From the IMG/VR virus record IMGVR_UViG_2690316028_000003, positions 1 to 19,137 of that record: 19,137 nt of DNA. One strand, written 5' to 3'. Below are positions 1-16,941 of the stretch, piece by piece. The translations under genes and the position numbers were made by a program. Source of the stretch: a virus. Taxonomy: Duplodnaviria > Heunggongvirae > Uroviricota > Caudoviricetes. How positions within the stretch are numbered: position 1 is the first letter of the stretch; each line of letters starts with the position of its first letter. A model generated the notes under the pieces. That model searched no databases, was not told the origin of the DNA, and saw only the letters and a program-made list of their open reading frames with translations.

Positions 1-200
1 ACGACTCCGTTACGCTTGTTGATTAATCTGTGCGCCCACGCCACAGGCTCCGCTTCGAGCGATGCCAGCGCGATACGCGCATTATTAATCAGGAGGCTAT
101 CAGCAGGAGATAAAACAACATGAGCGTTACCCTCCGCATCAATTTCAGAATTCGTAATTTTTCTGAACAGCTTTGCCAGTTCTCTGGTAATAGTGGTCAT
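1..200 (-). CDS. hypothetical protein (partial; 3' end lies beyond window start)
   Basis: ATG at 200..198 on minus strand with GAGGA Shine-Dalgarno about 7 nt upstream; frame stays open to the window edge (MTTITRELAKLFRKITNSEIDAEGNAHVVLSPADSLL...); starts 3 nt after stop of upstream gene 204..485. Confidence 0.4.
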   Translation of the reverse strand, partial: MTTITRELAKLFRKITNSEIDAEGNAHVVLSPADSLLINNARIALASLEAEPVAWAHRLINKRNGV

Positions 201-203
201 GGG

Positions 204-485
204 TTAGTCCTCACCCTGGATAGAATTCTTACGGTTTGAACGACACACCAGCGCCCAAAAATTCATTTCGCAAATCAGTGCCGCCAACACCTCAGCCCGG
301 CGACGGCCTCCTAATTTATTGGACCTCCCAACAGAGCGTTTACGCTGACGAATTATCTTTCTTGCGTGGGCCGCCTGCACTTCATCACGCCGCTGTTTTG
401 ATGCATAAACGCCCTTTGCGGGCACTTTGCGCGCCTGTTTTTGATAAGCAGTTAACAGGTCGTGTACGTCTGTAAATTTAGGCAT
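204..485 (-). CDS. hypothetical basic protein (93 aa)
   Basis: ORF track; ATG at 485..483 lies 2 nt after stop of 488..871, fitting the tightly packed operon; no recognised domain; C-terminal half is Arg-rich and could be spurious. Confidence 0.4.
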   Translation of the reverse strand: MPKFTDVHDLLTAYQKQARKVPAKGVYASKQRRDEVQAAHARKIIRQRKRSVGRSNKLGGRRRAEVLAALICEMNFWALVCRSNRKNSIQGED

Positions 486-487
486 TC

Positions 488-871
488 TTATTCCCCCTTA
501 CCGATGCCAGCGGCGCTAAGTTTGGTATTCACGTCGCCTTCAAAAATAGGCAGCACACCAATAGCAGCAGCCCAGTTTTTAGCTAACTCAGGGTCTGATG
601 TCTCATCGGTGTAATCTGATGCCCGCCACCCAATCAGTCGTTTCTGACCAGGAATGTCAGAGTTTCGCTTCTCCGTTGCTTGCTCTAGAGCATTAAGCAG
701 TGTCCGTATTTCCTGCTGCTGAGTAGAGATGGTTGAGTCTTTGGCATCCAGCTCATCCAGCAGCGCCAGCACATCGCGAGTTTCCACGAACATATTCGGG
801 TCGAAGTTATCAGCTGCTTTTGCTGCGGCTGATTTCAGTTTGTCGCGAGCCTGTTTGTTGATGTTGCTCAT
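488..871 (-). CDS. hypothetical protein (127 aa)
   Basis: ORF track; start overlaps stop of upstream gene (868..1140) by ATGA-type overlap; no recognised domain. Confidence 0.55.
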   Translation of the reverse strand: MSNINKQARDKLKSAAAKAADNFDPNMFVETRDVLALLDELDAKDSTISTQQQEIRTLLNALEQATEKRNSDIPGQKRLIGWRASDYTDETSDPELAKNWAAAIGVLPIFEGDVNTKLSAAGIGKGE

Positions 872-1140
872 TGGGCGGTTCCTTCGTAACCGATGGCTTC
901 TGCAATTTCAGCAAGTGTCTCTGCACTTTCACCCACTGGCTCATTCATCCAGTCGAAGGAAACAAGCTTACCGCCTTCGATAACGCCGATGTTGAAATCA
1001 TCACTACCTTGTGTTTTCAGACCATGCTTGATTGCCTTATCGCGCTTATCGAAGTCAACGCCGTCTGTCGTGTATTCAACTCCATGGCCTTTCTCGTTGC
1101 ACCACCAGTACTGCTGAATAACGATGTATGATTTTCTCAT
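868..1140 (-). CDS. hypothetical protein (90 aa)
   Basis: ORF track; 4-nt overlaps with both neighbours; no recognised domain. Confidence 0.55.
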   Translation of the reverse strand: MRKSYIVIQQYWWCNEKGHGVEYTTDGVDFDKRDKAIKHGLKTQGSDDFNIGVIEGGKLVSFDWMNEPVGESAETLAEIAEAIGYEGTAQ

Positions 1141-1583
1141 GACTGCACTCCTTTGCGAATTTGGTAGGCATGGACGCGCATTATGTCGATTGCCTTCGAT
1201 GTGACAGGATGCTGATGGTTCATCATCGCAATGACTGTGTTAATCGCTGAATCCACACCCTGCGCCCGCACTTCAGCCAGGAAAGCGTCGGTGGCTGGGG
1301 TTTCTAACTTCTTGGTGGTTGTATCAAACTCAAACAACTTAACCACGTCATCAAACAGGACATAATCGCCATCAGGATCTTCAGTCATGTCAGCGCCACA
1401 ATCCTGACCGAACGAGTCGCAACCATCAATATCAAGCTCGTATCGCTTAAGGTTTGCGATATTTGATAAATTCAACGCCAGTACAGCAAGGTCATAAACC
1501 TCGTCAACGGTATACCCTGCACCATGCCCATACATTTCAATGCGCGATATGATTTCTTCTACTCGTTGTTTTGTGATTGTCAT
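1137..1583 (-). CDS. hypothetical acidic protein (148 aa)
   Basis: ORF track; start ATG overlaps stop of the HNH gene 1580..2284; no recognised domain. Confidence 0.6.
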   Translation of the reverse strand: MTITKQRVEEIISRIEMYGHGAGYTVDEVYDLAVLALNLSNIANLKRYELDIDGCDSFGQDCGADMTEDPDGDYVLFDDVVKLFEFDTTTKKLETPATDAFLAEVRAQGVDSAINTVIAMMNHQHPVTSKAIDIMRVHAYQIRKGVQS

Positions 1584-2284
1584 TTTTGATCACATCCTTT
1601 GCGAAGCTGGGCATCGGTATTGATGCGACTAAAATAGAATCCGAATACTTTCTTCCATGGCTTAACAACAGCGTCCCTGATTGAGTTTGGGTTAAATCCA
1701 GCCTCGATGGCCTGTTTGCTGTCAAAGAACACATACCCAAAACCTTCCTCGTTCTCAGCGCAGACTGGACCTTTATACGATCCGTGTTTTCTTCCCCCGG
1801 CCAGACCTGTTCTATATGCGTGCTGAGTGTTGCCCGCTACCGTCGTCCACTCCAGGTTTGAAACATCATTGTTTTGTTTATTCCCGTCTATATGGTTAAT
1901 TACGTGCTCATCAGAAGGCTTAGGGCCGAGAAAGTTTTCAGCAACTAATCGGTGGATGTTCACGCCTTTTAGTTTTCCTTCAAGCTCCAGCCTAACGAAT
2001 AAATACTGATTTCTGTTCTTGCCGCGCATGGTTGGGTTTAATTGCTTTAGTTCGCCAGAGGCCAATGAGAAAATGAGCCCCTTTGAGGTGATGAAATAGC
2101 GATACTTAAAACCAAAAATCTCTTTCACATCGCCAAATAAGTCAGCCAGCGCCGCGCACTTGGCCTCCGCTTCAGCAAATTTACGCACCAGATATTCAGC
2201 GTTTGTTTCGTTAACCTTTAAGTCTCGCGGGATGCATTTTCCTTTCAGAAATCCATCCATCTCAATTAGTGACATTTGTTTCAT
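1580..2284 (-). CDS. HNH homing endonuclease (NUMOD4-like N-terminus plus HNH_3 domain)
   Basis: Translation contains [24 protein letters not shown] (NUMOD4-like) and [11 protein letters not shown]...[19 protein letters not shown] (HNH_3 motif H..N..DN....NLE); embedded by ATGA overlaps between neighbours. Confidence 0.75.
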
Positions 2285-2445
2285 TTCTTCCCACTCCGCA
2301 ACATCGCATTCAGATATTTGTTTTGATTCACTGATGGAAAAGAATTTCTCTTAAGCAATTCCTCTCTCGATGGCATTGGCTTTACGCGTTGGCGAATAAT
2401 CATTTCTGCCGGAAGAATGCCGGGATTGTATGCAAGTCCTCTCAT
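2281..2445 (-). CDS. small hypothetical protein (54 aa)
   Basis: Manual translation ([54 protein letters not shown]); GAGGAA SD 6 nt upstream of ATG at 2445; stop overlaps ATG of HNH gene (ATGA); below ORF-track size cutoff. Confidence 0.3.
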
Positions 2446-2461
2446 GGTAAATTCCTCTTTG

Positions 2462-2776
2462 TTAATTTATTCGTATGCCTGCTCTTTCTTCATCGAGTTT
2501 TTTTAGCTTGTATCGCATAGCTCTTACTGAATAAATTGAGCGGCAGGTTGCAATTGCTATTTCTTCTGCGGAGAACTTACCGAAAAGTGATACTTCGGCT
2601 CTTGTCCATCGTCTTCCACGAAGTCGGCTAACAATGTCAGCTCCAATCCTTGTTGCTTTCGCCATTACTGCTTTTTCAGTCCTTTCCAGTTTTTCAGCGA
2701 TAACTTCAACTGGCATTGTCGCCGCTACTTCGCGCAAGAAATCGACTTCCCATTTCTCCCATGGAGTCTTTTTCAT
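2462..2776 (-). CDS. hypothetical protein with two tandem W-x3-EV-x-(F/L) helical repeats, possible DNA-binding
   Basis: ORF track; internal duplication visible ([14 protein letters not shown]...IAEKL... vs [22 protein letters not shown]...); no strong SD. Confidence 0.55.
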
Positions 2777-2787
2777 AGGCGATACCG

Positions 2788-3270
2788 TTATTTGATAAGA
2801 AGTGAAGGTTTCCCAACTTTGAGTTGAGCGCCGGGGATATTTATTCCTGCTTTTAGTTGGTGTTTGATTGCCAGTTTGTCGGCTTTAATTGTCGTTTCAA
2901 ACTCAACGTATTCAGGAGGAAGGGCGCTTGAGTCGATTATTTCTACAATTTCTGACGGTTTGCGGATTGTTACCTGGTGAATACCTGCTCGAATATTTTT
3001 CTTGCCAACCATTTCAAGCGATGACGCTATATATGATTTGATGCTGTCAATCTTATTTTGGATTACTGCGGCTCGCTCATTCAGTGACTTTGCCTCTTCC
3101 TTGAGGCGTTCAGCATAACCAGATTCATTTTTAATGACGGAAAGAAGTTGCTCTATTTTATCGGTAAATTCTCCTTCCATGCCTTCTATTGTGTCAGCAA
3201 TCATCTCTGGTTCTAAATCTGAATCCATCAATTTTGCGTATTCATTGGCAATTTCATACAGTTTGCTCAC
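2788..3270 (-). CDS. Siphovirus Gp157-family protein (RecT-associated, function unknown)
   Basis: ORF track frame 2788..3276; family assigned from recalled similarity and position immediately downstream of recT; likely start is GTG at 3270 preceded by GGAGG 6 nt upstream (track start at 3276 is TTG). Confidence 0.55.
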   Translation of the reverse strand: MSKLYEIANEYAKLMDSDLEPEMIADTIEGMEGEFTDKIEQLLSVIKNESGYAERLKEEAKSLNERAAVIQNKIDSIKSYIASSLEMVGKKNIRAGIHQVTIRKPSEIVEIIDSSALPPEYVEFETTIKADKLAIKHQLKAGINIPGAQLKVGKPSLLIK

Positions 3271-4168
3271 TGGCAACCTCCAGTTTCGCTTTGCATTCTA
3301 TGTAAATGGCTTGTACGTTCTGCTGCAATTTCATTCCAGACGTCAGGCGATATGCTTCTGCAAAATATCGCTTCAAATCATCCATGTTTTCTGCCTGAGC
3401 CATTTCATCGCAAAGAAGTTGTACTTTATCCATTATTTCCTGCTGGCGTTTCCGTTCATCTTCGCGGATATCTTCCTCTGATTTGTGCGGCATAACTGGT
3501 TCAGTCCACACACCTTCTTCTTCGTTTAGTACGTGAATAGCACTATCAAGACGTGATGCCTTAGGCCAATACTTGCTTGCACGCTTTACGACCGTCTTTC
3601 GCGCCATCTCATTCCAGTGATTTACCCATGGTCCTTTATCGCTGAATGCCGCCTTGCTTGTTTTCCTTACAGCCTCAATTTCAGCCAGACTCATCTCTTC
3701 CGTTAGATAATCACCTGCTGGCGTCTTAACTGTGCAGTAAACGCCAACGATATCACCACGATCACCGAAGGCGTTGTATTTATGGGTTGGTGCTTTATCA
3801 AGCCCGTTTGACTCATAGGTATCGTTAGCATGAACAAGTTTTGCCTGACCCCATGAGATAACACCAGACTCCATTGCAATATGGAGCAATCCCATATAGC
3901 TGATATCAAGGCAAACCATGCCGTCGCGCGGAACCAGATAAGCCAGTTTGCTGGCCGGGTTTAAGGTGATGCCGATCGCCGCAACGTTGATGATAGCGTT
4001 CTGTGCGCTGGTCGGATTTGCCAGTGCTGTTTTAGCCAGGTAATCATTTTTCTGGAAATACTGAATTGCAAACTGGCTTTCCTTAGCCCATGTGACTGAT
4101 TGGTCTGTAACCGCCCCAACAAAGAGCGGCTCTTGCTGTTTAACGAACTCAACAATGCTCATGCTCAT
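3254..4168 (-). CDS. recT: RecT-family single-strand annealing recombinase
   Basis: 304 aa; segment ...KGPWVNHWNEMARKTVVKRASKYWP matches the conserved RecT core (GPWV.HW.EMA.KT...R..KY.P) as I recall it from E. coli Rac RecT; sits in the bet position downstream of gam. Confidence 0.85.
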   Translation of the reverse strand: MSMSIVEFVKQQEPLFVGAVTDQSVTWAKESQFAIQYFQKNDYLAKTALANPTSAQNAIINVAAIGITLNPASKLAYLVPRDGMVCLDISYMGLLHIAMESGVISWGQAKLVHANDTYESNGLDKAPTHKYNAFGDRGDIVGVYCTVKTPAGDYLTEEMSLAEIEAVRKTSKAAFSDKGPWVNHWNEMARKTVVKRASKYWPKASRLDSAIHVLNEEEGVWTEPVMPHKSEEDIREDERKRQQEIMDKVQLLCDEMAQAENMDDLKRYFAEAYRLTSGMKLQQNVQAIYIECKAKLEVASEQTV

Positions 4169-4170
4169 CG

Positions 4171-4467
4171 TTACTGTCCCTCATCAATATCTGTTTGGTG
4201 GCGAGCAATTGTCTCTGCCATGTAGCGAATAAATTCAGCGGCCCTTTCCTGAAACTCGACGTCATCATCGAATGCTTTGGAAATGGCATTCTTGCTGGCC
4301 CCGCGACGTTGCAACTCGTCAACGCACAACGATTCCAGTTTGCTCTGTGGCAATCCTTTTTCTAGGTCATCAGCCAGTTCAGATTCACGCTCTTCTCTGG
4401 CTATTTGCTGATAATGGCGCGTCCAGTTCTGCGCCTCGATACGGTCTTGAACGAGATATGCAGCCAT
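4171..4467 (-). CDS. gam: host-nuclease (RecBCD) inhibitor Gam, short form
   Basis: From ATG 4467 (AGGAG SD 6 nt upstream): [41 protein letters not shown]...[34 protein letters not shown], near-identical to lambda GamS; ORF track offers an upstream ATG at 4596 (GamL-like extension) that overlaps the preceding gene by 50 nt. Confidence 0.8.
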
Positions 4468-4546
4468 AATAGGCTCCTGAAATTTGGTTGTGCGCTGCCC
4501 GTCTGCGATAGCCGGACGAGTAGGGGTAATGGGTGTTTGGTGTGGT

Positions 4547-4789
4547 TTACTTGCCGAGTGCCTTGTCGATGGCGGAACGAGCCATATCAAACTCATCTGT
4601 TTGACGGTCTGCTACTCTAACTACAGCCTGCAGAGCTTCCAGTAATTCAGGCACTGCAGTAATGAGAGTCTTGTTTTCCTTGCTCGTCATTTCAAGTGGA
4701 TATCCCTTTCCAAAGACTATGTGATGCTTGTTTCCCAAGCCCTCTTCATCCCAAAACCACGGACCGGGAGTTCCTTTAAATTCGCTCAT
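4547..4789 (-). CDS. small protein, Ead/Ea22-like C-terminal-domain family (paralog of 6341..6619)
   Basis: ORF track; motifs [28 protein letters not shown] shared with the 6341..6619 product; AGGAAG SD; family name is from recall. Confidence 0.55.
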
Positions 4790-4792
4790 AAC

Positions 4793-4912
4793 TCACTTCC
4801 TGTGCCACGGAAAACCAATTGCCGCCTTCATATCGTTGTAGGCTGACATCCACATTTCACTATCACCAATAAATCGGGCTATTACTGCTTTGTTCTGTGC
4901 AGCACGAAGCAT
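4793..4912 (-). CDS. possible Kil-like small protein (39 aa)
   Basis: Manual translation MLRAAQNKAVIARFIGDSEMWMSAYNDMKAAIGFPWHRK; sits between cIII and the next gene as kil does in lambda; FIGD motif resembles what I recall of lambda Kil; no clear SD. Confidence 0.25.
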   Translation of the reverse strand: MLRAAQNKAVIARFIGDSEMWMSAYNDMKAAIGFPWHRK

Positions 4913-4926
4913 CTGGTGATTGATGG

Positions 4927-5058
4927 CTATTTCATTGCGCGTAATAAGACCTCAACTCTTTTCCATCCGTCACGTAATTTACGGGTGATTCGTTCAAGTA
5001 AAGATTCATTTAGTTGGAAGGCACCCATGCGAGCGCCTCCCGCGATTGCGTAAATCAT
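4927..5058 (-). CDS. cIII: CIII-like FtsH inhibitor (43 aa)
   Basis: Manual translation MIYAIAGGARMGAFQLNESLLERITRKLRDGWKRVEVLLRAMK; core ESLLERITRKLRDGWKR matches lambda CIII; AAGGAA SD 6 nt upstream; below ORF-track size cutoff. Confidence 0.7.
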   Translation of the reverse strand: MIYAIAGGARMGAFQLNESLLERITRKLRDGWKRVEVLLRAMK

Positions 5059-5082
5059 GGGTGGTTCCTTATGTTGGTTTTA

Positions 5083-6051
5083 TTAGTAGGTTATTTTTGT
5101 TGCGAATACTTCGCCTTTTACGATGGCTGTTATGATATTTTTAGCAACATCTTCTGATGCGCCAACCTTGATAAGGTCAGCAAGTATTTTGTTATTTACT
5201 TCTTTCCGGTGAGCTTTATCCTTTGCTCTACGCTCTTCTTCTTCCTTGATTCTTTTTTCTTCTGCTATTCTGGCTTGCTCTTTTGCTTCAGCCTCGCGCC
5301 TGATTCGTTCAGCCTCCTCCTGTGCTTTTCGGCGTTCTGCTTCAATTGCCGCCTGCTTTTCTCTTTCAGCTCGTTCTGCTGCCTCTTTTGCTTCGCGCTG
5401 TGCTCGTTGCTCGGCTTCAATGCGTTCACGCTCTGCACGTTCCGCTGCGGCCTTAGCTTCTGCTTCTCGCCTTGCTGCTGCTTCAATTTCGGCTTTTGCC
5501 TTTGCTTCGGCTTCTGCTCTGGCTTTCTCTTCAGCTTCTCTTTTTAAGCGTTCTTCATGCTCTCGCTTTTCCTGCTCCGCTTTGAGTCTTGCCTCTTCTC
5601 TTTGGCGGTCAAATTCGCGATCCATCAAAAACGCTATTTCATGGTCAGACTCAATTTGCTTTGCGAGAGCTTCAGCTGCTGCCTTAGCTTCTTCTTCGGC
5701 TTTAATCCGCGCCTGTTCTTCCTCATAATCAGTAAGAGGCTGGCGCGCCTTGGCTTTCAGTTCATCAAGGCGATCGCGCACTGTCTTGCGGTTAGCATCA
5801 ATTAGCTTTGGAATTTCCTTCAGTTCAGCAACAAGGTCTTTGCCAAGACCATCGAGATATGTTTTCGTCTGCGCAACTTTATACGCCAGAGAAGCGATCT
5901 CCTTTCTGCCCTTTGCCGTTGTGATATCAGGCACAAAGGACATAACTTCACGTTCAACCTTTTGAAGGATTTCTTCAATCTGGTCGGCAGACTGAAATAC
6001 AGTCATTGCATTTGCTTTTTCAATAACAACTAAATCTGTTACTTCACTCAT
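5083..6051 (-). CDS. hypothetical protein with about 170-aa E/A/R/K-rich charged helical (SAH/coiled-coil-like) central segment
   Basis: ORF track 322 aa; GGAGGA SD upstream of ATG 6051; central region is REAEEKARAEAEAKAKAEIEAAARREAEAK...; globular N- and C-terminal ends. Confidence 0.65.
   Translation of the reverse strand: MSEVTDLVVIEKANAMTVFQSADQIEEILQKVEREVMSFVPDITTAKGRKEIASLAYKVAQTKTYLDGLGKDLVAELKEIPKLIDANRKTVRDRLDELKAKARQPLTDYEEEQARIKAEEEAKAAAEALAKQIESDHEIAFLMDREFDRQREEARLKAEQEKREHEERLKREAEEKARAEAEAKAKAEIEAAARREAEAKAAAERAERERIEAEQRAQREAKEAAERAEREKQAAIEAERRKAQEEAERIRREAEAKEQARIAEEKRIKEEEERRAKDKAHRKEVNNKILADLIKVGASEDVAKNIITAIVKGEVFATKITY
5230..5700. repeat. low-complexity imperfect short repeats (gcttc/ctgc-rich) encoding the E/A/R/K segment
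   Basis: Visible short-period repetition on the plus strand; produces spurious Cys/Phe/Ser-rich plus-strand ORFs (5209..5547, 5246..5728). Confidence 0.5.
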
Positions 6052-6063
6052 ATATCCTCCATC

Positions 6064-6091
6064 AAAAAATTGCCCTCACACTGGAGGGCAA
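6064..6091 (-). terminator. intrinsic terminator inside the pL operon (tL-like)
   Basis: 8-bp stem ttgccctc/gagggcaa (6070..6077 with 6084..6091), 6-nt loop; on the minus strand it is followed by UUUUUU (plus a-run 6064..6069). Confidence 0.5.
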
Positions 6092-6182
6092 AGAAGATTT
6101 CCAATAATCAGAACAAGTCGGCTCCTGTTTAGTTACGAGCGACATTGCTCACATAGCAGACTCGCAAATCTGCTATAGGTGC

Positions 6183-6344
6183 TTATTCGCATCGCATGAC
6201 AACATCAAATTTTTCGAGATTACTTTGTCGCAACAATCCCTCTTCTACGCGGTCAGCTTTTCTATAATTATCAAATTCGAAATGTTTAATTACTTCTTTC
6301 GTTTCTCGCTCTATAACTTCAACAATGTATTTCTTATTCATCAT
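6183..6344 (-). CDS. small hypothetical protein (53 aa)
   Basis: MMNKKYIVEVIERETKEVIKHFEFDNYRKADRVEEGLLRQSNLEKFDVVMRCE; ATG at 6344 overlaps TGA stop of upstream gene (ATGA coupling); track's longer version starts inside the upstream gene. Confidence 0.45.
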   Translation of the reverse strand: MMNKKYIVEVIERETKEVIKHFEFDNYRKADRVEEGLLRQSNLEKFDVVMRCE

Positions 6345-6619
6345 TCTTCCCCCAGGGCCTTGCTGATGGCTGCCTTGGCTCGTTTGTATTCGGTTAACTC
6401 TCTGCACCCTTCGTCATGCTCGTAAAGGAAGACAAGCTCTTGCAGTGCTTCAAGCAAATCAGGAGCTGCTGCTATCAGTAGCGCATCCTCCCTTTCATTT
6501 CTTGTTGCTGCTTCAATGTATGTGTCACCAATCGTCACACCATGGAACGTAGTCATCATCTCGTTGACGTTTCTAACCGTGTACTTCCATTTACCAGGCG
6601 TACCCTTAAACTCTTTCAT
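6341..6619 (-). CDS. small protein, Ead/Ea22-like C-terminal-domain family (paralog of 4547..4789)
   Basis: From ATG 6619 (GAGG 5 nt upstream): MKEFKGTPGKWKYTVRN...LLIAAAPDLLEALQELV...AKAAISKALGEE; track start at 6625 is GTG. Confidence 0.55.
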   Translation of the reverse strand: MKEFKGTPGKWKYTVRNVNEMMTTFHGVTIGDTYIEAATRNEREDALLIAAAPDLLEALQELVFLYEHDEGCRELTEYKRAKAAISKALGEE

Positions 6620-6649
6620 ATCCACCTCTGTTGTTTATGCCAAAGCAAA

Positions 6650-6817
6650 TTTAACCATCAACAAACTCTTCTGGTAATTTATCAACCAGTTGATGACTTA
6701 TTATCAGCCATTTGCCATCCTTCGTTTCGTATGCATATTTCTGGTCTTTTATCATCATGTGTTCGGCTACTGCCCTAACTGCCTGATCGGTGACATCTTC
6801 TCTCTTTCCTACCCACA
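6650..6817 (-). CDS. small hypothetical ORF (55 aa), in frame with and directly after a 24-codon ORF (6818..6892)
   Basis: Manual translation MWVGKREDVTDQAVRAVAEHMMIKDQKYAYETKDGKWLIISHQLVDKLPEEFVDG; no SD of its own; upstream mini-ORF has strong GAGGA SD and ends with TGA immediately before this ATG. Confidence 0.25.
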
Positions 6818-6949
6818 TTCATTTTTCAGTGTTTAATGTTCCTTGAAAAATACGACCGCTTAATGGGCTTGCGCCCATAGTTTTTACTCTCATGTATCAG
6901 TCCTCAAATAAGTGGTTTGCTGCGAAAATAAATCCGCTTAAGTTACCTG

Positions 6950-7087
6950 TTATTTATCCCACCAAGTTCCGTATCTATCTATCCAGTTACACCAATCATC
7001 GACACTCCATTTTGTTGTGTCGCATTTTGGCAACTGGCATGAATATCTACCTTCTTTGTAAAGTCGGCGTTTGACTTTCTTGAGCAT
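6950..7087 (-). CDS. small Cys/Trp-rich hypothetical protein (45 aa)
   Basis: Manual translation MLKKVKRRLYKEGRYSCQLPKCDTTKWSVDDWCNWIDRYGTWWDK; ATG 8 nt after N stop with GAGG about 6 nt upstream. Confidence 0.3.
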   Translation of the reverse strand: MLKKVKRRLYKEGRYSCQLPKCDTTKWSVDDWCNWIDRYGTWWDK

Positions 7088-7095
7088 GGCTCACC

Positions 7096-7428
7096 TCAAT
7101 CGTAATAAGCTGGAATTGATTTTCCGCGTTGTTTCTGGCGGCCTACACAAGTCACACCCATTTCACTGCGTGGCTTGCTGTACCATGTGCGCTGATTCTT
7201 GCGCTCAATACGTTGCAGGTTGCTTTCAATCTGTTCGTGGTATTCAGCCAGCACCGTAAGGTCTATCGGATTCAGTGCGCTTTCTACTCGTGATTTCGGT
7301 TTGCGATTCAGCGAGAGAATAGGGCGGTTAACTGGTTTTGCGCTTACCCCAACCAACAGGGGATTTGCTGCTTTCCATTGAGCCTGTTTCTCTGCGCGAC
7401 GTTCGCGGCGGCGTGCTTGTGCATCCAT
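7096..7428 (-). CDS. N: antitermination protein N
   Basis: From ATG 7428 (AGGAG SD): MDAQARRRERRAEKQAQWKAANPLLVGVSAKPVNRPILSLNRKPKSRVESALNPIDLTVLAEYHEQIESNLQRIERKNQRTWYSKP..., near-identical to lambda N including the arginine-rich motif; track's upstream ATG at 7479 lacks a good SD. Confidence 0.9.
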   Translation of the reverse strand: MDAQARRRERRAEKQAQWKAANPLLVGVSAKPVNRPILSLNRKPKSRVESALNPIDLTVLAEYHEQIESNLQRIERKNQRTWYSKPRSEMGVTCVGRQKQRGKSIPAYYD

Positions 7429-7600
7429 CTTGATTCTCCTGTCAGTTAGCTTTGGTGGTGTGGTAGGTGGGAGACCCATTTCGACCTGCTTCGGCCGACT
7501 TCAATTCGGCAATAGTTCCGCAGGCCTCGCCGCTTTACGTGCGACATATTCCCATCCATGAACCCTTCACCACACCCCAAAGCCTTCTGCTTTGAATGCT

Positions 7601-7631
7601 GCCCTTCTTCAGGGCTTAATTTTTAAGAGCA
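7601..7631 (-). promoter_or_regulatory. nutL (boxA plus boxB) N-utilisation site
   Basis: Minus-strand reading gives TGCTCTTAA (boxA-like, 7631..7623) followed by GCCCTGAAGAAGGGC (boxB hairpin, 7615..7601), matching lambda nutL boxB exactly. Confidence 0.85.
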
Positions 7632-7670
7632 TCACCTTCATGGTGGTCAGTGCGTCCTGCTGATGGCTAG

Positions 7671-7699
7671 ATAATCACAAATTGTGTTCGTGCTGTCAA
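7671..7699 (-). promoter_or_regulatory. pL-like early-left promoter
   Basis: Minus strand TTGACA (7699..7694), 17-nt spacer, GATTAT (7676..7671); overlaps operator sites; points toward nutL and N. Confidence 0.6.
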
Positions 7700-7734
7700 C
7701 ACGAAATGTGATTGTTTTTATCACAACACGTGTT
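7674..7734. promoter_or_regulatory. OL: three repressor operator sites
   Basis: 15-bp dyads ATCACA-AAT-TGTGTT (7674..7688), AACACG-AAA-TGTGAT (7698..7712), ATCACA-ACA-CGTGTT (7720..7734); centre spacing 24 and 22 bp. Confidence 0.6.
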
Positions 7735-7772
7735 TTCATTGATTTTTAAGGTAATTTAATTTTCTTTGGGCA

Positions 7773-7806
7773 ACAAAAAACCCGCCGAAGCGGGTTTGAT
7801 GTTTTT
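7773..7806. terminator. bidirectional intrinsic terminator downstream of cI
   Basis: aaaaaa-CCCGC-cgaa-GCGGG-tttgatgttttt: GC hairpin with an A-run on one side and T-rich run on the other; 15 nt past the cI stop. Confidence 0.55.
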
Positions 7807-7820
7807 AAGTGGCGGGTATA

Positions 7821-8462
7821 TCAGGAGAATTTCATCATCATCTGCACTGCTACGCCGATTATCTTGCAGTTGCCGTCGATTGGGATCAACGGATAGGCAG
7901 GGTTAAGCCCTTTCAGGTATTTGTTACCGCCATCAATGATTAGCTTCTTGAACGTGGCTTCATTAGCATCTGTCAGCTTCGCAACTACCAGGCTTCCATT
8001 AACGGCTTCCTTTCCAGTGTCGAACAGAACCAGCATACCCTCAGGAACGCTAAGGCCGGTAGGAGCTGTCATTGAGTCGCCCTGAACCCTGAGCCAGAAG
8101 GCGTCACCGACAACGTGACAATCTGATTCATACCACTCATCCACTGCCTGAGGGTTGTACGGCTCTACGGCCTCACTCCATGCACCTGCGCTAACCCAGC
8201 TAATCAACGGAAACTTTTCCCCTGGCTTGTATTGTCCCTGATAGTTGTCGCCAAAAAGCAGTTCTGCCGGAGCGACGCCCAAAGCTTTAGCTATTACCTC
8301 TGCGTCATCAACACTAACGCTTCTGGTTCCTGATTCATAGTTGCCGATCCGAGATTGTGAAGCCCAGCCGCAAAGCTCCGCCAGCGCCTTCTGTGAAAGC
8401 CCTTTATCTTCCCGTAATCGCTTGATACGCGCGGCGATAGTTTCTGTTCTGTTCATGCGCAT
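7821..8462 (-). CDS. cI: CI-type prophage repressor (N-terminal HTH, C-terminal LexA-like S24 autopeptidase)
   Basis: 213 aa; HTH segment LSQKALAELCGWASQSRIGNYESG; probable Ala-Gly cleavage site in SAGAW; catalytic QGDSM serine motif and downstream Lys; ATG sits within about 10 nt of a TATAAA -10-like element, suggesting a near-leaderless pRM transcript. Confidence 0.85.
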   Translation of the reverse strand: MRMNRTETIAARIKRLREDKGLSQKALAELCGWASQSRIGNYESGTRSVSVDDAEVIAKALGVAPAELLFGDNYQGQYKPGEKFPLISWVSAGAWSEAVEPYNPQAVDEWYESDCHVVGDAFWLRVQGDSMTAPTGLSVPEGMLVLFDTGKEAVNGSLVVAKLTDANEATFKKLIIDGGNKYLKGLNPAYPLIPIDGNCKIIGVAVQMMMKFS

Positions 8463-8467
8463 TTTAT

Positions 8468-8529
8468 ATCACATTCCGTGGTTTAAGGCTTTACACGATT
8501 TGTGTTGACTATCAATCACAATATGTGTT
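8468..8529. promoter_or_regulatory. OR: three repressor operator sites
   Basis: ATCACA-TTC-CGTGGT (8468..8482), TACACG-ATT-TGTGTT (8492..8506), ATCACA-ATA-TGTGTT (8515..8529); same half-site consensus as OL. Confidence 0.6.
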
Positions 8530-8533
8530 TAAT
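8505..8533 (+). promoter_or_regulatory. pR-like early-right promoter
   Basis: TTGACT (8505..8510), 17-nt spacer, TTTAAT (8528..8533); overlaps the two cro-proximal operators. Confidence 0.55.
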
Positions 8534-8566
8534 AAAGACTGAGTGAACTAGCTCTTAAGGAAACCT

Positions 8567-8782
8567 ATGAACAACATTGCCAACGAACGGAAAAAGCTTG
8601 GCATCACTCAATCTGCGTTAGCAGGCGCGTGTGGCTGGAACCAGTCCCGCTTAGCTAACTACGAGTCAGGTATCCGGACTCCAGATTTAGAGTCGTGCCG
8701 TCGCCTGGTAAAGGCGCTGAATAAATTGGGGAGCAAGACAACGCTAGATGGCTTGTTCCCGCCGGAACACAAAGCCGCTTAA
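8567..8782 (+). CDS. cro: Cro-like HTH regulator
   Basis: 71 aa; HTH LGITQSALAGACGWNQSRLANYESG; first gene after pR, divergent from cI; AAGGAA SD. Confidence 0.75.
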   Translation: MNNIANERKKLGITQSALAGACGWNQSRLANYESGIRTPDLESCRRLVKALNKLGSKTTLDGLFPPEHKAA

Positions 8783-8790
8783 GACATTCC

Positions 8791-8822
8791 CGCTCTTACA
8801 CATCCCCGCCCTGAAAAAGGGC
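8791..8822 (+). promoter_or_regulatory. nutR (boxA plus boxB)
   Basis: CGCTCTTACACA (boxA, 8791..8802) and GCCCTGAAAAAGGGC (boxB, 8808..8822); the stretch from here to cII appears essentially lambda-identical. Confidence 0.85.
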
Positions 8823-8901
8823 ATCAAATTAAACCACACCTATGGTGTATGCATTTATTTGCATACATTCAATCAATTGTTATCTAAGGAAATACTTACA
8901 T

Positions 8902-9180
8902 ATGGTTCGTGCAAACAAACGCAACGAGGCTCTACGAATCGAGAGTGCGTTGCTTAACAAAATCGCAATGCTTGGAACTGAGAAGACAGCGGAAGCTGTG
9001 GGAGTTGATAAGTCGCAGATCAGCAGGTGGAAGAGGGATTGGATTCCAAAGTTCTCAATGCTGCTTGCTGTTCTTGAATGGGGTGTTGAAGACGAGGAGT
9101 TGGCGGAACTGGCTAAGAAAGTAGCCAGAATGCTGACAAAAGAAAAAGCCCCGAAGAACGGCGAATTCTTCGAGGCCTGA
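8902..9180 (+). CDS. cII: transcriptional activator CII
   Basis: From ATG 8902: MVRANKRNEALRIESALLNKIAMLGTEKTAEAVGVDKSQISRWKRDWIPKFSMLLAVLEWGV..., near-identical to lambda CII over the first roughly 60 residues; track start at 8842 is an upstream in-frame Met. Confidence 0.9.
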   Translation: MVRANKRNEALRIESALLNKIAMLGTEKTAEAVGVDKSQISRWKRDWIPKFSMLLAVLEWGVEDEELAELAKKVARMLTKEKAPKNGEFFEA

Positions 9181-9214
9181 TGTAGAAAGACTGGATCAAT
9201 CCACAGGAGTAATT

Positions 9215-9376
9215 ATGACAAAACGTCGTAAGAAATACCAGGAAAAAGAAGAGATTCGACACCCTGATTCACCTGAGGGATTAGTGGTAGCCGCAGCAAA
9301 TAACAGGGCGTTCGCAGAGCGCCTTGTTGGTGTTTACAGACTAGCCAAAGCAGGAGTGAAACATGGGCGTCGTTAA
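9215..9376 (+). CDS. small basic hypothetical protein (53 aa)
   Basis: Manual translation [53 protein letters not shown]; AGGAG SD 5 nt upstream; overlaps O start by 14 nt. Confidence 0.35.
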   Translation: MTKRRKKYQEKEEIRHPDSPEGLVVAAANNRAFAERLVGVYRLAKAGVKHGRR

Positions 9377-10184
9377 GTTAGCTGATTACAGGCCTCAACT
9401 GGAGGTCGTGGAGCATCGCGTGGCAGATACCGAAGATGGTTTCATGCGCGTTGCTAACGAGATTACCGACAGTCTGCTGATGGCTGATTTAACCGTCCGG
9501 CAGATGAAGGTGATGCTCGCTATCATGCGCAAGACATACGGATTCAATAAGCCGATGGATCGACTCACAAACACGCAGATAGCAGCCATGACAGGTATTC
9601 ATCACACTCATGTTTGCGCTGCCAAGCGCCAGCTTATTGAGCGTAAATTCCTCATTGCTGATGGCGTGAAAATCGGAGTGAACAAGGTGGTTTCTCAGTG
9701 GATTAGCCAGGACAGCTTAACATTAGCTAAAACAGCTAATAAAACATTAGCCAAGTCGGCTAATGGGTATAAGCCAAGTCAGCTAAACACAAAAGACAAT
9801 ATACAAAAGACAATAAATACAAATACCCCCTTACCCCCTAACGGGGGTGGCGATGGGCAGGTTAAACCTGAACGTCGCAAGGCAGAACGAATCGACTACG
9901 AATCCTTCCTGAACGCCTACAACACCGAAGTCGGTGACAGACTGCCACACGCTGTTTCGGTCAACGAGAAACGCAAACGCCGCCTGAAGAAAATCATCCC
10001 GCAACTGAAAACGCCAAACGTGGACGGTTTCAGAGCGTATGTCAGGGCGTTTGTGCATCAGGCCAAGCCGTTTTACTTCGGAGACAACGACACGGGCTGG
10101 ACGGCCGATTTTGATTACCTGTTGAGGGAAGATTCGTTAACGGGAGTACGGGAAGGGAAGTTTGCAGACAGGGGGATTTCATGA
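9363..10184 (+). CDS. O: replication initiator, lambda O-like N-terminal domain
   Basis: N-terminal region ...[37 protein letters not shown]... resembles lambda O (DLTKRQFKVLLAILRKTYGWNKPMDRITDSQL); AGGAG SD; iterons inside the gene. Confidence 0.8.
9703..9825. repeat. origin-like iterons (four copies) plus AT-rich tract inside the O gene
   Basis: TTAGCCAGGACAGCTTAA (9703..9720), TTAGCTAAAACAGCTAA (9723..9739), TTAGCCAAGTCGGCTAA (9747..9763), AAGCCAAGTCAGCTAA (9771..9786), each with internal dyad TTAGC...GCTAA, followed by an A/T-rich run acacaaaagacaatatacaaaagacaataaatacaaata. Confidence 0.55.
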
Positions 10185-11557
10185 GACAGGATATCGAAGC
10201 GAGCGTTATCGGTGGCCTGCTGATTGGTGGATTAACGCCAACCGCCAGCGACGTTCTGGCAACGCTGGAGCCGGAAGCGTTTTCAATTCCGCTCTACCGG
10301 AAAGCCTTCGAGGTTATCCGCAAGCAGGCGAGAAACAGAAACCTAATCGATGCGCTGATGGTTGCCGAGGCGTGCGGAGAGGAGCATTTCACGTCAATCC
10401 TGATGACCAGCAAAAACTGCCCGAGTGCCGCAAACCTGAAGGGATATGCCGGAATGGTCGCGGATAACTATCACCGCCGTCTGGTGCTGGAAATCATGGA
10501 TGAAATGCGTGAACCAATTCAGAGCGGAACCATCGACGCATCGAGTCAGGCGATGGATGAACTTGTAAAGCGTCTCTCAGCCATCAGAAAGCCCCGTAAC
10601 GAGGTTAAACCGATACGGTTAGGGGAAATCATCACTGACTACACTGACACGCTTGACAGGCGTCTGAGGAACGGAGAAGAGTCAGATACCCTGAAGACCG
10701 GAATCGAAGAACTTGACGCCATCACCGGAGGGATGAACGCGGAAGACCTTGTGATAATCGCTGCTCGTCCTGGTATGGGGAAAACCGAACTGGCGCTGAA
10801 GATTGCCGAAGGCGTTGCAAGCCGCGTTATTCCTGGTTCTGACGTCCGGCGCGGGGTATTGATTTTCTCAATGGAAATGAGCGCATTGCAGATTGCAGAG
10901 CGAAGCATTGCCAACGCCGGGAGGATGTCGGTTAGCGTACTGCGAAATCCTGCATCGATGGATGACGAGGGCTGGGCACGTGTTGCTAACGGCATGAGTC
11001 AGCTTGCAGATTTGGATGTATGGGTAGTCGATGCCTCGCGGTTATCGGTCGAAGAAATACGCTCAATCGCAGAACGGCACAAACAGGAAAATCCAAACCT
11101 GTCACTCATCATGGCGGATTATCTTGGCCTGATTGAGAAGCCGAAAGCAGACCGCAACGACCTTGCAATTGCTCACATCTCCGGAAGCCTGAAGGCGATG
11201 GCGAAAGACCTGAAAACGCCTGTTATCTCCCTGAGTCAGCTTTCGCGCGATGTTGAGAAGCGACCAAACAAACGCCCGACAAACGCAGATTTGCGTGATT
11301 CAGGAAGCATTGAACAGGATGCAGACTCAATCATCATGCTCTATCGGGAAGCGGTATATGACGAGAACAGTAGCGCCGCGCCATTTGCTGAAATCATTGT
11401 GACGAAAAACCGTTTTGGCTCGCTTGGTACGGTTTACCAGCGGTTCTGCAACGGACACTTTGTTGCATGTGACCAGGATGAAGCCAGACAGATTTGCACA
11501 ACATCAAATGCACCCGCTGCACGTGGCAGACGATATGCACAAGGGGCTGACGTATGA
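10181..11557 (+). CDS. DnaB-family replicative DNA helicase (P22 gp12-like)
   Basis: 458 aa; Walker [10 protein letters not shown]; DnaB-like N-terminal domain; ATG overlaps O stop (ATGA). Confidence 0.85.
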
Positions 11558-11658
11558 CCATCTACATCACTGAGCTAATAGCAGGGTTATCGTTACTAAT
11601 GGTTCTTACTGTATATATTATTAAGTATATTCTTTATGCGAATAAAAAAACTAATTGA
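11554..11658 (+). CDS. possible small hydrophobic membrane peptide (34 aa)
   Basis: Manual translation [34 protein letters not shown]; ATG overlaps helicase TGA (ATGA); one predicted TM helix with a basic C-terminus; overlaps the start of the next HNH gene in another frame. Confidence 0.2.
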
Positions 11659-12247
11659 TCACGATGAGCTTCTGTCAACATTATCATATGACTCAGAAAC
11701 AGGAATATTTAAATGGCTAAAAACAAATTCAGTAGTAAGAGTAAAAGGTAGTATTGCTGGAGGTGTTAGTGGTGGTTATATATGCATTAGCATAAATAAT
11801 GTTTTGTATTATGCGCATAGACTTGCTTGGTTCTATGTATACAAAAAATGGCCTCCTAAGTTTATTGATCATGTAAATGGGAACAGACTTGACAATAGGA
11901 TTTCAAATCTAAGACTGGCAACAGAAGAGCAGAATGCAAGAAACATTGTAGGGAATAGATTAAACACATCCGGTGCAATTGGAGTGTCTTGGTATAAGCC
12001 AACTGGCAGGTGGAAGTCTTATGTTGGTTATAAAAATAAGACAATATCGTTAGGGTATTTCGATAGCAAAGAAGATGCAGCATTCATAGCAGCACTAGCA
12101 AGAAAGAAACTATATGGAACTTATGCGAGTAAAGCACTTAATTGCGAGCATGAGCTTTTATCTCAATTTAATAATGATGAGGATAAACTTGCGGAATATC
12201 TTAAGGAAAAATCTAAAAGGACTCGAAATCGTGTTAAAAACAGATAA
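11636..12247 (+). CDS. HNH homing endonuclease (HNH_3 plus AP2-like DNA-binding domain)
   Basis: YYAHRLAWFYVYKKWPPKFIDHVNGNRLDNRISNLRLATEEQN (HNH_3) then GVSWYKPTGRWKSYVGYKNKTISLGYFDSKEDAAFIAA (AP2-like); visibly AT-rich compared with the flanking helicase and ninB; no clear SD. Confidence 0.75.
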   Translation: MRIKKLIDHDELLSTLSYDSETGIFKWLKTNSVVRVKGSIAGGVSGGYICISINNVLYYAHRLAWFYVYKKWPPKFIDHVNGNRLDNRISNLRLATEEQNARNIVGNRLNTSGAIGVSWYKPTGRWKSYVGYKNKTISLGYFDSKEDAAFIAALARKKLYGTYASKALNCEHELLSQFNNDEDKLAEYLKEKSKRTRNRVKNR

Positions 12248-12279
12248 AGGCCTGCTGGTAATCGCAGGCCTTTTTATTT
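12248..12279 (+). terminator. intrinsic terminator (tR2-like) between the replication module and nin region
   Basis: Stem aggcctgc/gcaggcct (8 bp), 8-nt loop, then TTTTTATTT. Confidence 0.65.
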
Positions 12280-12295
12280 GGGGGAGAGGGAAGTC

Positions 12296-12736
12296 ATGAA
12301 AAAACTAACCTTTGAAATTCGATCCCCAGCACATCAGCAAAACGCTATTCACGCGGTGCAGCAAATTCTTCCAGACCCAACCAAGCCAATCGTAGTGATC
12401 ATTCATGAGCGCAACCGCAGCTTAGACCAAAACAGGAAGCTATGGGCCTGCTTAGGTGACGTCTCTCGTCAGGTTGAATGGCATGGTCGCTGGCTGGATG
12501 CAGAAAGCTGGAAGTGTGTGTTTACCGCAGCATTAAAGCAGCAGGATGTTGTTCCTAACCTTGCCGGGAATGGCTTTGTGGTAATAGGCCAGTCAACCAG
12601 CAGGATGCGTGTAAGCGAATTTGCGGAGCTATTAGAGCTTATACAGGCATTCGGTACAGAGCGTGGCGTTAAGTGGTCAGACGAAGCGAGACTGGCTCTG
12701 GAGTGGAAAGCGAGATGGGGAGATCGGGCTGCATGA
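12296..12736 (+). CDS. ninB: NinB (Orf-family recombination mediator)
   Basis: From ATG 12296: MKKLTFEIRSPAHQQNAIHAVQQILPDPTKPIVV...ARLALEWKARWGDRAA, near-identical to lambda NinB; track start 12278 is an upstream TTG. Confidence 0.9.
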   Translation: MKKLTFEIRSPAHQQNAIHAVQQILPDPTKPIVVIIHERNRSLDQNRKLWACLGDVSRQVEWHGRWLDAESWKCVFTAALKQQDVVPNLAGNGFVVIGQSTSRMRVSEFAELLELIQAFGTERGVKWSDEARLALEWKARWGDRAA

Positions 12737-13095
12737 CTATCAAATCAAATACGGCAGCGTCAGATAGGTATCGGCTTATTGAGGATTATCTGTATTTAGA
12801 CGGAGATACAGTCAGATACAAAAAGGACTCGCTAAAACACCCCAACCACAGCCACCGGGCCGGAGATGAAATTAAAACATCGATAAATGGATCTGGGTAT
12901 AGACAGGTGTGTTTTGCAGGCATTCAGATGTTTGTTCACGTAGTTGTTTTTGCGCTGCACAACAAAAGAATGCCATTGAAAAATATTGACCATATTAACG
13001 GAAACAGGCTGGACAATTCCCCAAAAAATCTTAGGGAGGCAAGCCGGATAGCAAACAGCCGAAATCAGAAAACTAAGTTCAATAGCCGTTCTTGA
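12733..13095 (+). CDS. HNH endonuclease, HNH_3 domain only; an in-frame TGA separates it from an AP2-like domain that continues to 13260
   Basis: From ATG 12733 (overlaps ninB stop): MTIKSNTAASDRYRLIEDYLYLDGDT...VHVVVFALHNKRMPLKNIDHINGNRLDNSPKNLREASRIANSRNQ; after TGA at 13093..13095 the same frame stays open for 54 codons ([54 protein letters not shown]). Confidence 0.6.
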   Translation: MTIKSNTAASDRYRLIEDYLYLDGDTVRYKKDSLKHPNHSHRAGDEIKTSINGSGYRQVCFAGIQMFVHVVVFALHNKRMPLKNIDHINGNRLDNSPKNLREASRIANSRNQKTKFNSRS

Positions 13096-13256
13096 ATAAA
13101 AAATGTTTTATGGAACAAGCAAAAAAATAAATGGGCCGTTCAAGTGCGCACAGATTTTGGCCGGTTGCATTTTGGGTTCTATGAAGATCTTGAGCTTGCT
13201 GGTTTGGTTGCCAGTGAGGCTATCAACAAATATCACGGACAATATGCGAGGGTTGA

Positions 13257-13787
13257 ATGATTAAGCATAAATCAGAAACACCAAAAGAAGTTAGAGACTG
13301 CTGGCAAACGCCGCTCTGGCTTTTTGATGCACTGGATATTGAGTTTGGATTCTGGCTGGACTCAGCTGCGAGCGACAAAAATGCTCTGTGCGCTCACTGG
13401 CTAACTGAGGCCGACGACGCGCTCAATTCTGAGTGGGTAAGCCACGGTGCAATCTGGAATAACCCACCGTACAGCAATATCAGGCCGTGGGTGGAAAAAG
13501 CCGCTGAGCAGTGCATACAACAGCGACAGACGGTAGTTATGCTTGTGCCAGAGGATATGTCAGTCGGATGGTTCAGCAAGGCTCTGGAGAGTGTCGACGA
13601 AGTTCGCATTATCACTGATGGACGGATTAATTTTATCGAACCATCGACAGGGCTGGAGAAGAAGGGAAACAGCAAAGGCTCAATGCTGCTGATTTGGCGA
13701 CCGTTCATCAGTCCTCGACGAATGTTTACTACCGTATCCAAAGCGGCATTGATGGCGATCGGGCAGGGCGTCAGGAGGGCGGCATGA
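13257..13787 (+). CDS. phage Dam-like DNA N6-adenine methyltransferase
   Basis: 176 aa; [18 protein letters not shown]...[10 protein letters not shown] (NPPY catalytic motif IV); ATG overlaps the upstream stop. Confidence 0.8.
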
Positions 13788-13960
13788 GGCGACAGCGACG
13801 AAGTATCACCGACATCATCTGCGAAAACTGCAAATACCTTCCAACGAAGCGCTCCAGAAATAAATGCAAGCCAATCCCAAAAGAATCTGACGTAAAAACC
13901 TTCAACTACACGGCTCACCTGTGGGATATCCGGTGGCTAAGACATCGTGCGAGGAAATGA
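13784..13960 (+). CDS. ninE: NinE
   Basis: From ATG 13784 (ATGA overlap with the methyltransferase stop): [58 protein letters not shown], near-identical to lambda NinE. Confidence 0.85.
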
Positions 13961-16870: not shown

Positions 16871-16912
16871 AAATAATTTTCCCTAATGTTGAAAATATAT
16901 AGGAAATAGGTA

Positions 16913-16941
16913 TTGCATTTCGCGGAAAAACTGGATAGATT
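16913..16941 (+). promoter_or_regulatory. candidate late promoter PR' (qut region)
   Basis: TTGCAT (16913..16918), 17-nt spacer, TAGATT (16936..16941), about 45 nt past Q stop and about 50 nt before the first terminator. Confidence 0.3.

Follow-up and report, generated by a model that had tools for sequence, protein, structure and literature searches.

A three-part phage protein of the Sf6 gp33/D3 gp53 family with a predicted helical spacer and genetic linkage to recombination modules

The DNA analysed here (the window) is a stretch of 19,137 nucleotides from a tailed phage (Caudoviricetes), positions 1 to 19,137 of the IMG/VR record IMGVR_UViG_2690316028_000003. On its minus strand, at 5083..6051, it carries a gene for a protein of 322 amino acids (aa), referred to below as the target gene and the target protein. 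The protein belongs to PHROG 1376, a family that includes Sf6 gp33 and D3 gpOrf53. Its members consist of two conserved end domains joined by a long charged linker, and in most lineages their genes lie directly or closely upstream of phage recombination (Rec) genes. One homologue, gp53 of phage D3, is dispensable for phage growth and licenses targeting by the Gabija defence system. By analogy with this homologue and from the gene order, we tentatively propose that the target protein may well be an elongated, non-enzymatic accessory factor of the phage DNA-end/recombination machinery. The gene had already been catalogued (as Sf6 gene 33 and D3 orf53) and one homologue has a published phenotype; both facts, and the link to recombination modules, were missed by an earlier note on this DNA, which was made from the sequence alone. 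New in the present analysis are an estimate of how large the family is, together with its fixed architecture of three parts, arguments against a classical coiled coil, a record of natural length variants and their junctions, and counts that link the gene to Rec modules of different annealase types.

Family membership and domain architecture

The target gene is subdivided as follows.

5083..6051 (-): target coding sequence, ATG start, 322 aa; PHROG 1376 member (Sf6 gp33 / D3 gpOrf53 family)
5698..6051 (-): N-terminal conserved domain (N-domain), aa 1-118
5212..5697 (-): central E/A/R/K-rich spacer, predicted helical, aa 119-280
5602..5658 (-): conserved island QIESDHEIAFLMDREFDRQ, aa 132-150, within the spacer
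5086..5211 (-): C-terminal conserved domain (C-domain), aa 281-322
6056..6060 (-): Shine-Dalgarno sequence GGAGG, 4 nt 5' of the target ATG

At the DNA level the gene is 98-99% identical to Sf6 gene 33 (98.6%), IME10 Orf53 and unnamed genes in mEp043, mEp213, HK544, CUS-3 and Stx1a phages, and of 5,426 complete E. coli genomes, 530 (about 10%) carry it. The PHROG 1376 profile matches the target protein with E = 1.1e-109 (aa 1-322 over profile positions 1-362) and D3 gpOrf53 with E = 6.7e-131. When the two end domains were searched separately, as the earlier note had suggested, the N-domain alone revealed a huge family: phmmer returned 4,996 representatives of 50%-identity clusters at E <= 1e-3, of which 3,538 reach E <= 1e-10. 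Pfam, NCBIfam and PADLOC gave nothing meaningful for the whole protein, for the isolated N- and C-domains or for 38 diverse family members. None of these 38 contains a Pfam domain, no PADLOC match to the target protein was better than E = 0.026, and Foldseek against the PDB gave no match at E <= 0.001.

Several candidate relatives were considered. PDB sequence searches with the protein and with the N- and C-domain profiles produced just compositional or repeat artefacts, such as designed armadillo repeats, and a weak match to RuvA domain III (E = 0.24) was counted among them. DUF1351, a suspected relative of the N-domain, was absent from the Pfam scans even at E <= 10, and none is annotated in Staphylococcus phage 80alpha. 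Sipho_Gp157 (PF05565) resembles the target protein in being helical and associated with Rec modules. Kinship was rejected, with an hhalign probability of 0.25% against the window's own Gp157 and no Pfam match; as the window phage encodes both, the two are distinct proteins. For the nuclease-less 'RecE-2' (PMC12315714) as the identity of the target gene there is no evidence either way, the gene not being discussed in the passages of that source that were searched.

The plan of N-domain, charged linker and C-domain is conserved in an alignment of the 38 diverse members. The earlier note had guessed end domains of about 120 and 40 aa, and these limits agree with the conserved blocks in alignments of both close and distant homologues. 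The N-domain of the target protein carries the family motif FVPD.(S/T)T.KGR..I.S.A.KV...K...D..GK.L....K...K.(I/V)D..RK..R..LD.L....R.PL...E, including all ten invariant columns (T45, R49, K63, G70, K78, D85, R88, L95, P105 and E110). The C-domain, of ~42 aa, follows the pattern HRxxIN...G..E.AK...AI..G.I....I.Y and forms the very end of the protein in 160 of 165 family members; the target protein itself ends in ...KGEVFATKITY (I-x-Y). The mean net charge is -1.4 for the N-domain, a slightly acidic value, and +1.7 for the C-domain, which is only mildly basic. Across the family the linker has a median length of 167 aa (interquartile range (IQR) 144-183, mostly within 120-200 aa), with a median of 64% E/A/R/K and ~1% Gly+Pro. 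The island QIESDHEIAFLMDREFDRQ is missing from a natural allele of 245 aa, and the D3-type subfamily has a ~75-aa middle domain instead of it.

Two frameshifted alleles (locus L079, 5001-5968; locus L080, 4905-5970) split the gene into N- and C-terminal halves. Such alleles may explain why separate PHROGs exist for the halves (17211, aa 1-115; 21365, aa 111-322).

Database records name the gene 'TolA', 'cell envelope biogenesis protein', 'coiled-coil domain-containing protein' or hypothetical. That it encodes a genuine TolA-like cell-envelope protein, as RefSeq and phage records imply by calling it 'cell envelope biogenesis protein TolA' or 'TolA', has next to no chance of being correct. The names are due to the Ala/Glu/Lys-rich extended helix, which resembles TolA domain II in composition. 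The target protein has no transmembrane segment that could serve as an anchor (the highest 19-residue Kyte-Doolittle mean, 1.03, falls at the C-terminal domain), no TolA C-terminal domain and no Pfam match; the NCBIfam model tolA_full (TIGR02794) gives 7 bits (E = 2.9) where the cutoff is 59.45, and the gene sits in a phage early operon instead of tol-pal. We thus regard the TolA identity as refuted and the resemblance as compositional only.

The central spacer and its length

The earlier note had described the centre of the protein as almost entirely Glu, Ala, Arg and Lys, and the counts bear this out: these four residues make up 88.3% of aa 161-280 and 81.5% of aa 119-280. Within aa 161-280, E+R+K account for 61%, Ala for 27.5% and bulky hydrophobic residues for 5.8%, and opposite-charge i/i+4 pairs number 0.4 per residue. 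The flanks are of ordinary globular composition (39% E/A/R/K and 31% hydrophobic residues at aa 1-118; 36% of each at aa 281-322).

A full-length AlphaFold2 (AF2) model, built on the 38-sequence alignment, has a mean predicted local distance difference test score (pLDDT) of 84.6 and a predicted template modelling score (pTM) of 0.33. It consists mainly of helices 46-183 and 193-295, which are separated at 182-192 by a low-confidence break (pLDDT < 50). The N-domain modelled alone (pLDDT 89.8) has short helices at 12-20 and 22-37, followed by a long amphipathic helix from residue 46. In helix 46-118 the bulky hydrophobics show a significant 3.6-residue periodicity, and conservation peaks at a period of 3.5-3.6 residues. 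The residues conserved in at least 80% of sequences (G48, R49, I52, A53, A56, V59, A60, K63, D67, G70, K71, V74, K78, D85, R88, K89, R92, L95, D96, R103, L106 and E110) cluster mostly at 180-340 degrees on the helical wheel. The periodic conservation indicates one conserved face and points to an extended interface. Within aa 161-280, no 3.5-3.6 periodicity was found for hydrophobics or for Ala, the power at 3.4-3.7 being within the shuffle null, and in no heptad register do bulky hydrophobics make up as much as 13% of the a/d positions.

Because a heptad or amphipathic signal is missing from the centre and AF2 predicts a helix apart from the break at 182-192, we read the centre as a solvent-exposed, single-helix-like spacer, which fits better than a classical coiled coil; if aa 119-280 were fully helical, its length would be ~24 nm. 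The spacer helix of the earlier note, joining two functional ends, is supported by the conserved three-part plan, the lack of heptads and the AF2 helix; the ruler-like role that the note offered as an option may be an overstatement, and AF2 places the low-confidence break within the helix.

The main structural alternative is that the centre forms an oligomeric or antiparallel coiled coil or hairpin which joins the N- and C-domains in one head, in the style of SMC/Rad50 arms. We consider this unlikely but worth keeping in mind; it is compatible with the same function, so that its probability and that of the proposed function are not to be added up. The break at 182-192, which leaves two long helices in a model with a pTM of only 0.33, is what such a structure might look like, an Ala content of 26-28% in the centre could allow tight antiparallel packing, and the amphipathic helix 46-118 with its one conserved face suggests helix-helix packing or dimerisation. 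Against it stand the missing hydrophobic and Ala periodicity at 161-280, the 5.8% of bulky hydrophobics and the lack of a heptad register. Moreover, the break itself has a pLDDT < 50, DSSP shows no strand pairing between the termini, and asymmetric natural deletions of 13-77 aa, some of them in common alleles, are tolerated anywhere in the centre, which a registered hairpin would be expected to resist.

In its mode of working the predicted spacer can be compared to ER/K single alpha-helix domains (myosin VI/X, INCENP, CAF-1 KER); no homology or membership is claimed. Both are long E/R/K helices with dense i/i+4 opposite-charge pairs and no hydrophobic seam, they link two functional domains, and their length is evolutionarily plastic. 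The spacer differs from these domains by its ~27% Ala, which is higher than expected for an ER/K motif, by its net charge of -8 and by the low-confidence AF2 break, and it is a putative monomer. General properties of single alpha-helix domains are described in PMC4183817 and PMC10335832.

The earlier note had further claimed that the centre is encoded by short imperfect DNA repeats. Tandem Repeats Finder detects in the target gene only a hexamer array of poor quality (63% matches) and 2.1 copies of an 18-mer, and there are direct-repeat families of 27-37 nt with 67-89% identity. Among peptide 5- and 6-mers, repeats are more frequent than in residue shuffles (P <= 0.002). However, repeated DNA k-mers (k=8-15) are no commoner than in codon-shuffled controls of the same segment (P = 0.25-1.0), and this test rules out a true DNA repeat array. 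The claim therefore holds weakly for the poor arrays and the peptide repeats, and fails for the DNA k-mers: the centre is low-complexity coding sequence with old, synonymously diverged peptide repeats.

On the opposite strand, two Ser/Ala/Phe/Leu/Cys-rich ORFs (open reading frames) lie inside the target gene, at 5209-5547 (+) (112 aa) and 5246-5728 (+) (160 aa). Both are low-complexity artefacts of the GAA/GCN coding strand, and they may be behind the paired 'hypothetical proteins' that several phage records list under the target gene.

That the length might vary at the repeats was borne out by a comparison of related alleles, which range from 245 to 333 aa and have most of their junctions at short repeats. 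Natural alleles of 245, 275, 287, 290, 296, 300, 304, 306 and 309 aa occur among close relatives, and an allele of 333 aa carries an 11-aa tandem duplication. All indels fall in the centre. Most deletion junctions lie at direct peptide repeats of 3-8 aa (AAERAERE, EAKAAAE, EAEAKA), and the junction of the commonest short allele (245 aa) lies at a 12-nt exact DNA repeat. Still, the length is constrained and not free. The 322-aa form is dominant, with 471 member sequences in a single cluster, and at about 77% identity the same length is retained in Escherichia, Enterobacter, Citrobacter, Cronobacter and Salmonella; the IQR of 144-183 aa for the family linker shows the same constraint.

Linkage to recombination modules and possible role

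The gene neighbourhood was analysed in 250 loci from IMG/VR and GenBank, whose family proteins were clustered at ~80% identity into 51 lineages. Same-strand downstream ORFs were classed by all-against-all BLAST and by Pfam scans of representatives, and the synteny count was limited to the 48 lineages whose loci extend 2 kb or more downstream of the gene. Of these, 39 encode on the same strand, within 3.5 kb downstream, an annealase (ERF, RecT/Bet or AAA_24 Sak4), a YqaJ or PD-(D/E)XK exonuclease, or a single-stranded DNA-binding protein (SSB); the figure was 38 before the extra Pfam scans, which added one lineage via DUF3799+RecT. The recombination gene is the very next ORF in 25 lineages, often 8-11 nt away, and in the 2.5 kb upstream one occurs in only 4 of the 48. 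The downstream layout is also seen in the annotated phages D3 and JBD44 (Pseudomonas), phiLM21 (Sinorhizobium), ST15-VIM1phi2.1, TCUAN1, Lbo240-yong2 and phiV039C, with Klebsiella, Acinetobacter and Vibrio among the hosts. In the window, Gam and RecT are encoded 0.5-1.8 kb downstream of the target gene on the same strand. E. coli alleles that are 97-100% identical precede ERF, RecT(+Gp157) or Sak4 modules interchangeably, and the gene thus travels with a Rec module and not with one annealase. In the passages searched, a recent survey of 246 lambdoid Rec modules does not list the target gene (PMC12315714). A hidden Markov model of the C-domain, run against all plus-strand ORFs of the 250 loci, hit only frameshifted fragments of the target gene; we found no reuse of the domain in neighbours.

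Two further ORF families without a Pfam match, of ~123 aa (locus L131, 6321-6692) and ~155 aa (locus L153, 7685-8152), lie downstream of ERF/YqaJ/SSB genes and recur in 12 and 7 of the 51 lineages, respectively. They are candidates for extra Rec-module accessories.

The homologue with a published phenotype is that of phage D3, whose orf53 is directly followed by erf (orf52) and exo (orf51). The N-domain of gpOrf53 is 52% identical to that of the target protein (E = 1e-37) and the C-domain is the same; PHROG 1376 membership, the C-terminal ...I.Y domain, an E/A/R-rich helix and the position upstream of a Rec module are likewise shared. The last of these also applies to Sf6 gene 33, which Casjens annotated as "similar to phage D3 gene Orf53". 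D3 gp53 differs in having 354 aa, with a ~75-aa middle domain where the target protein has only the 19-aa island, and in D3 the gene abuts erf, whereas in the window cIII, kil, a small ORF and gam lie in between. Spontaneous D3 deletions spanning orf52-orf66 are well tolerated and D3 can grow without gp53 (Hong et al., bioRxiv 2025, PMC12407980). The same preprint reports that Gabija is licensed by three redundant D3 factors, namely Exo-Erf, gp53 and gp66. Expression of orf53 alone restored targeting of D3 and JBD30 escape phages and sensitised a transduced cos plasmid (PMC12407980). The licensing phenotype is common to gp53, Exo-Erf, Mu-type Gam and further factors that act on linear DNA; within PHROG 1376 it has been reported only for D3 gp53 (PMC12407980). 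Since loss of RecBCD function by itself suffices for Gabija targeting, the authors propose that the licensing factors exclude RecBCD from linear phage DNA (PMC12407980).

Taken together with the synteny, this is consistent with our tentative proposal of an accessory factor of the DNA-end/Rec machinery. The target protein would act at or close to the ends of linear phage DNA that has just been injected or is being replicated, together with exonuclease, annealase and SSB. Host RecBCD would then not process the phage DNA, and Gabija would detect that state. The two end domains may bind different partners, or each other in an oligomer, with the helix setting their separation. The exact length of the spacer would tolerate microhomology-mediated deletions and duplications, yet be held at roughly 120-200 residues across the family.

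A number of observations weigh against this proposal. No DNA-binding or RecBCD-binding motif was found in the target protein, and the end domains are not basic (mean net charge -1.4 for the N-domain and only +1.7 for the C-domain). The preprint offers no mechanism for gp53 and leaves it off its end-binding systems (PMC12407980). As the window phage has Gam and Sf6 has Abc2, a RecBCD-excluding role would be redundant, and due to the extra middle domain of D3 gp53, transferring its phenotype to the target protein is an extrapolation. About 9 of the 48 lineages have no recognisable rec gene downstream. In lambdoids, cIII, kil and gam stand between the gene and the annealase, so that the synteny may partly reflect conserved lambdoid gene order, and since one allele occurs with three unrelated annealase families, a specific contact with the annealase is less likely.

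The phage factors known to exclude RecBCD (lambda Gam, P22 Abc2, Mu Gam and Exo-annealase pairs) occupy the same operon neighbourhood, and the D3 homologue shares Gabija licensing with them. For the target protein, binding of RecBCD or of DNA ends would be by analogy; it has no sequence or fold similarity to Gam (PF06064) and the others (Pfam; Foldseek against the PDB), and its gene co-occurs with Gam or Abc2 and does not replace them. A more far-reaching version of the proposal is that PHROG 1376 consists of previously unrecognised, widespread DNA-end/RecBCD-exclusion factors, encoded by the lead gene of proteobacterial-phage Rec modules and working as a rod of ~20-25 nm. We put this forward as a doubtful, speculative extension. 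The N-domain face and the terminal I-x-Y domain would each dock a different component (DNA end, SSB, exonuclease or RecBCD), the single-helix spacer would set the reach, its length being tunable via microhomology-mediated deletion or duplication, and the resulting state would be read by Gabija-type systems as 'foreign DNA'.

It is quite improbable, in our view, that the gene is instead a host-takeover or lysogeny accessory gene unrelated to recombination, like cIII and kil, with a position that merely follows the conserved order of the early operon. In the window and in Sf6 its neighbours are the terminator and cIII/kil and not rec genes. The association of one allele with three annealase families, the dispensability in D3 and the roughly 9 of 48 lineages without recognisable rec genes downstream would also fit. 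However, in phages other than lambdoids (Pseudomonas, Sinorhizobium, Acinetobacter and numerous metagenomic lineages) no more than 8-11 nt separate the gene from the annealase, the asymmetry between downstream (39/48) and upstream (4/48) rec genes is strong, and D3 gp53 shares its phenotype with Exo-Erf, Mu-type Gam and other linear-DNA factors.

Still less probable is a protein that does not act on DNA or RecBCD at all, and serves as a direct defence trigger or ligand (e.g. by binding GajAB) or as an anti-defence decoy. Long charged helices can act as protein-binding platforms, and gp53 alone suffices to license Gabija across different phages. The authors of the preprint, however, deem direct activation by six unrelated factors unlikely, and RecBCD loss alone licenses targeting (PMC12407980); moreover, the best PADLOC match of the target protein is no better than the E = 0.026 given above.

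Operon context in the window and significance

The other features of the window that were considered are listed from upstream to downstream of the target gene.

7821-8462 (-): CI-like repressor candidate ORF, assigned by eye from its translation
7699-7671 (-): pL-like promoter
7096-7479 (-): N (Pfam N36)
6341-6625 (-): 94-aa ORF (PHROG 1273)
6070..6091 (-): intrinsic terminator hairpin followed by T6, identical to Sf6 'tL2A'
4927..5058 (-): cIII-like gene, 24 nt 3' of the target gene (PHROG 550)
4796-4942 (-): kil-like ORF
4547-4789 (-): 80-aa ORF (PHROG 1273)
3254..4596 (-): recombination module (Gam + RecT) 3' of the target gene
4171-4596 (-): Gam ORF as listed, 141 aa, with Pfam Gam over aa 44-138
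3254-4168 (-): RecT
2788-3276 (-): Sipho_Gp157 (PF05565) gene, directly after RecT (E = 2e-37)
1580-2284 (-): HNH_3 endonuclease, further downstream of the Gp157 gene

From pL the order is N, small ORFs, terminator, target gene, cIII, kil-like ORF, 80-aa ORF, Gam and RecT. The slot corresponds to that which we take to be occupied by ea10 in lambda. The hairpin at 6070-6091 (-) with its T6 confirms that the target gene lies just past an internal terminator, as the earlier note had stated. Because this terminator precedes it, the gene is expected to need N antitermination; from the layout of promoter, N and terminator, and by analogy with the regulation of lambda pL, we infer that it is transcribed from pL and only after N antitermination.

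The 97 nt 5' of the target gene are identical in Sf6, where they are annotated as bsq4 (boundary sequence) and 'tL2A, homology to phage lambda'. The identity starts abruptly 97 nt 5' of the ATG (window 6052-6148 (-); locus L001, 4867-4988), with divergence further upstream. As this edge coincides with the Sf6 mosaic boundary bsq4, terminator and target gene appear to travel as one mosaic module.

Some neighbouring genes have features of their own. The start codon of the kil-like ORF is changed from ATG to ACG, which is unique to the window among 112 sequences (fetched loci and window) that share the 23-nt context; this probably inactivates the toxic kil gene in the window prophage. The 94-aa and 80-aa ORFs, which flank the target gene on either side in one operon, are paralogues with 38% identity, and both bear the motif EFKGTPG.W ... 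P(D/E)LLEALQ. The listed Gam ORF is over-extended; its true start is likely the ATG at 4467 (MAAYLVQ...), which avoids the overlap with the 80-aa ORF. The pairing of RecT and Gp157 is repeated in several related loci.

The misnomer TolA affects a gene of about 10% of the complete E. coli genomes and of thousands of phage lineages, and recognition of the family corrects this widespread error. PHROG 1376 adds a candidate component to phage Rec modules. With natural alleles of 245, 300, 322 and 333 aa in E. coli lambdoid phages, it also provides a tractable system for the role of length-tunable single-helix spacers in bacteria and phages. One homologue, D3 gp53, decides whether a phage is visible to Gabija, and the family to which it belongs is large, mislabelled and situated at the frontier between RecBCD, Gabija and phage DNA ends.

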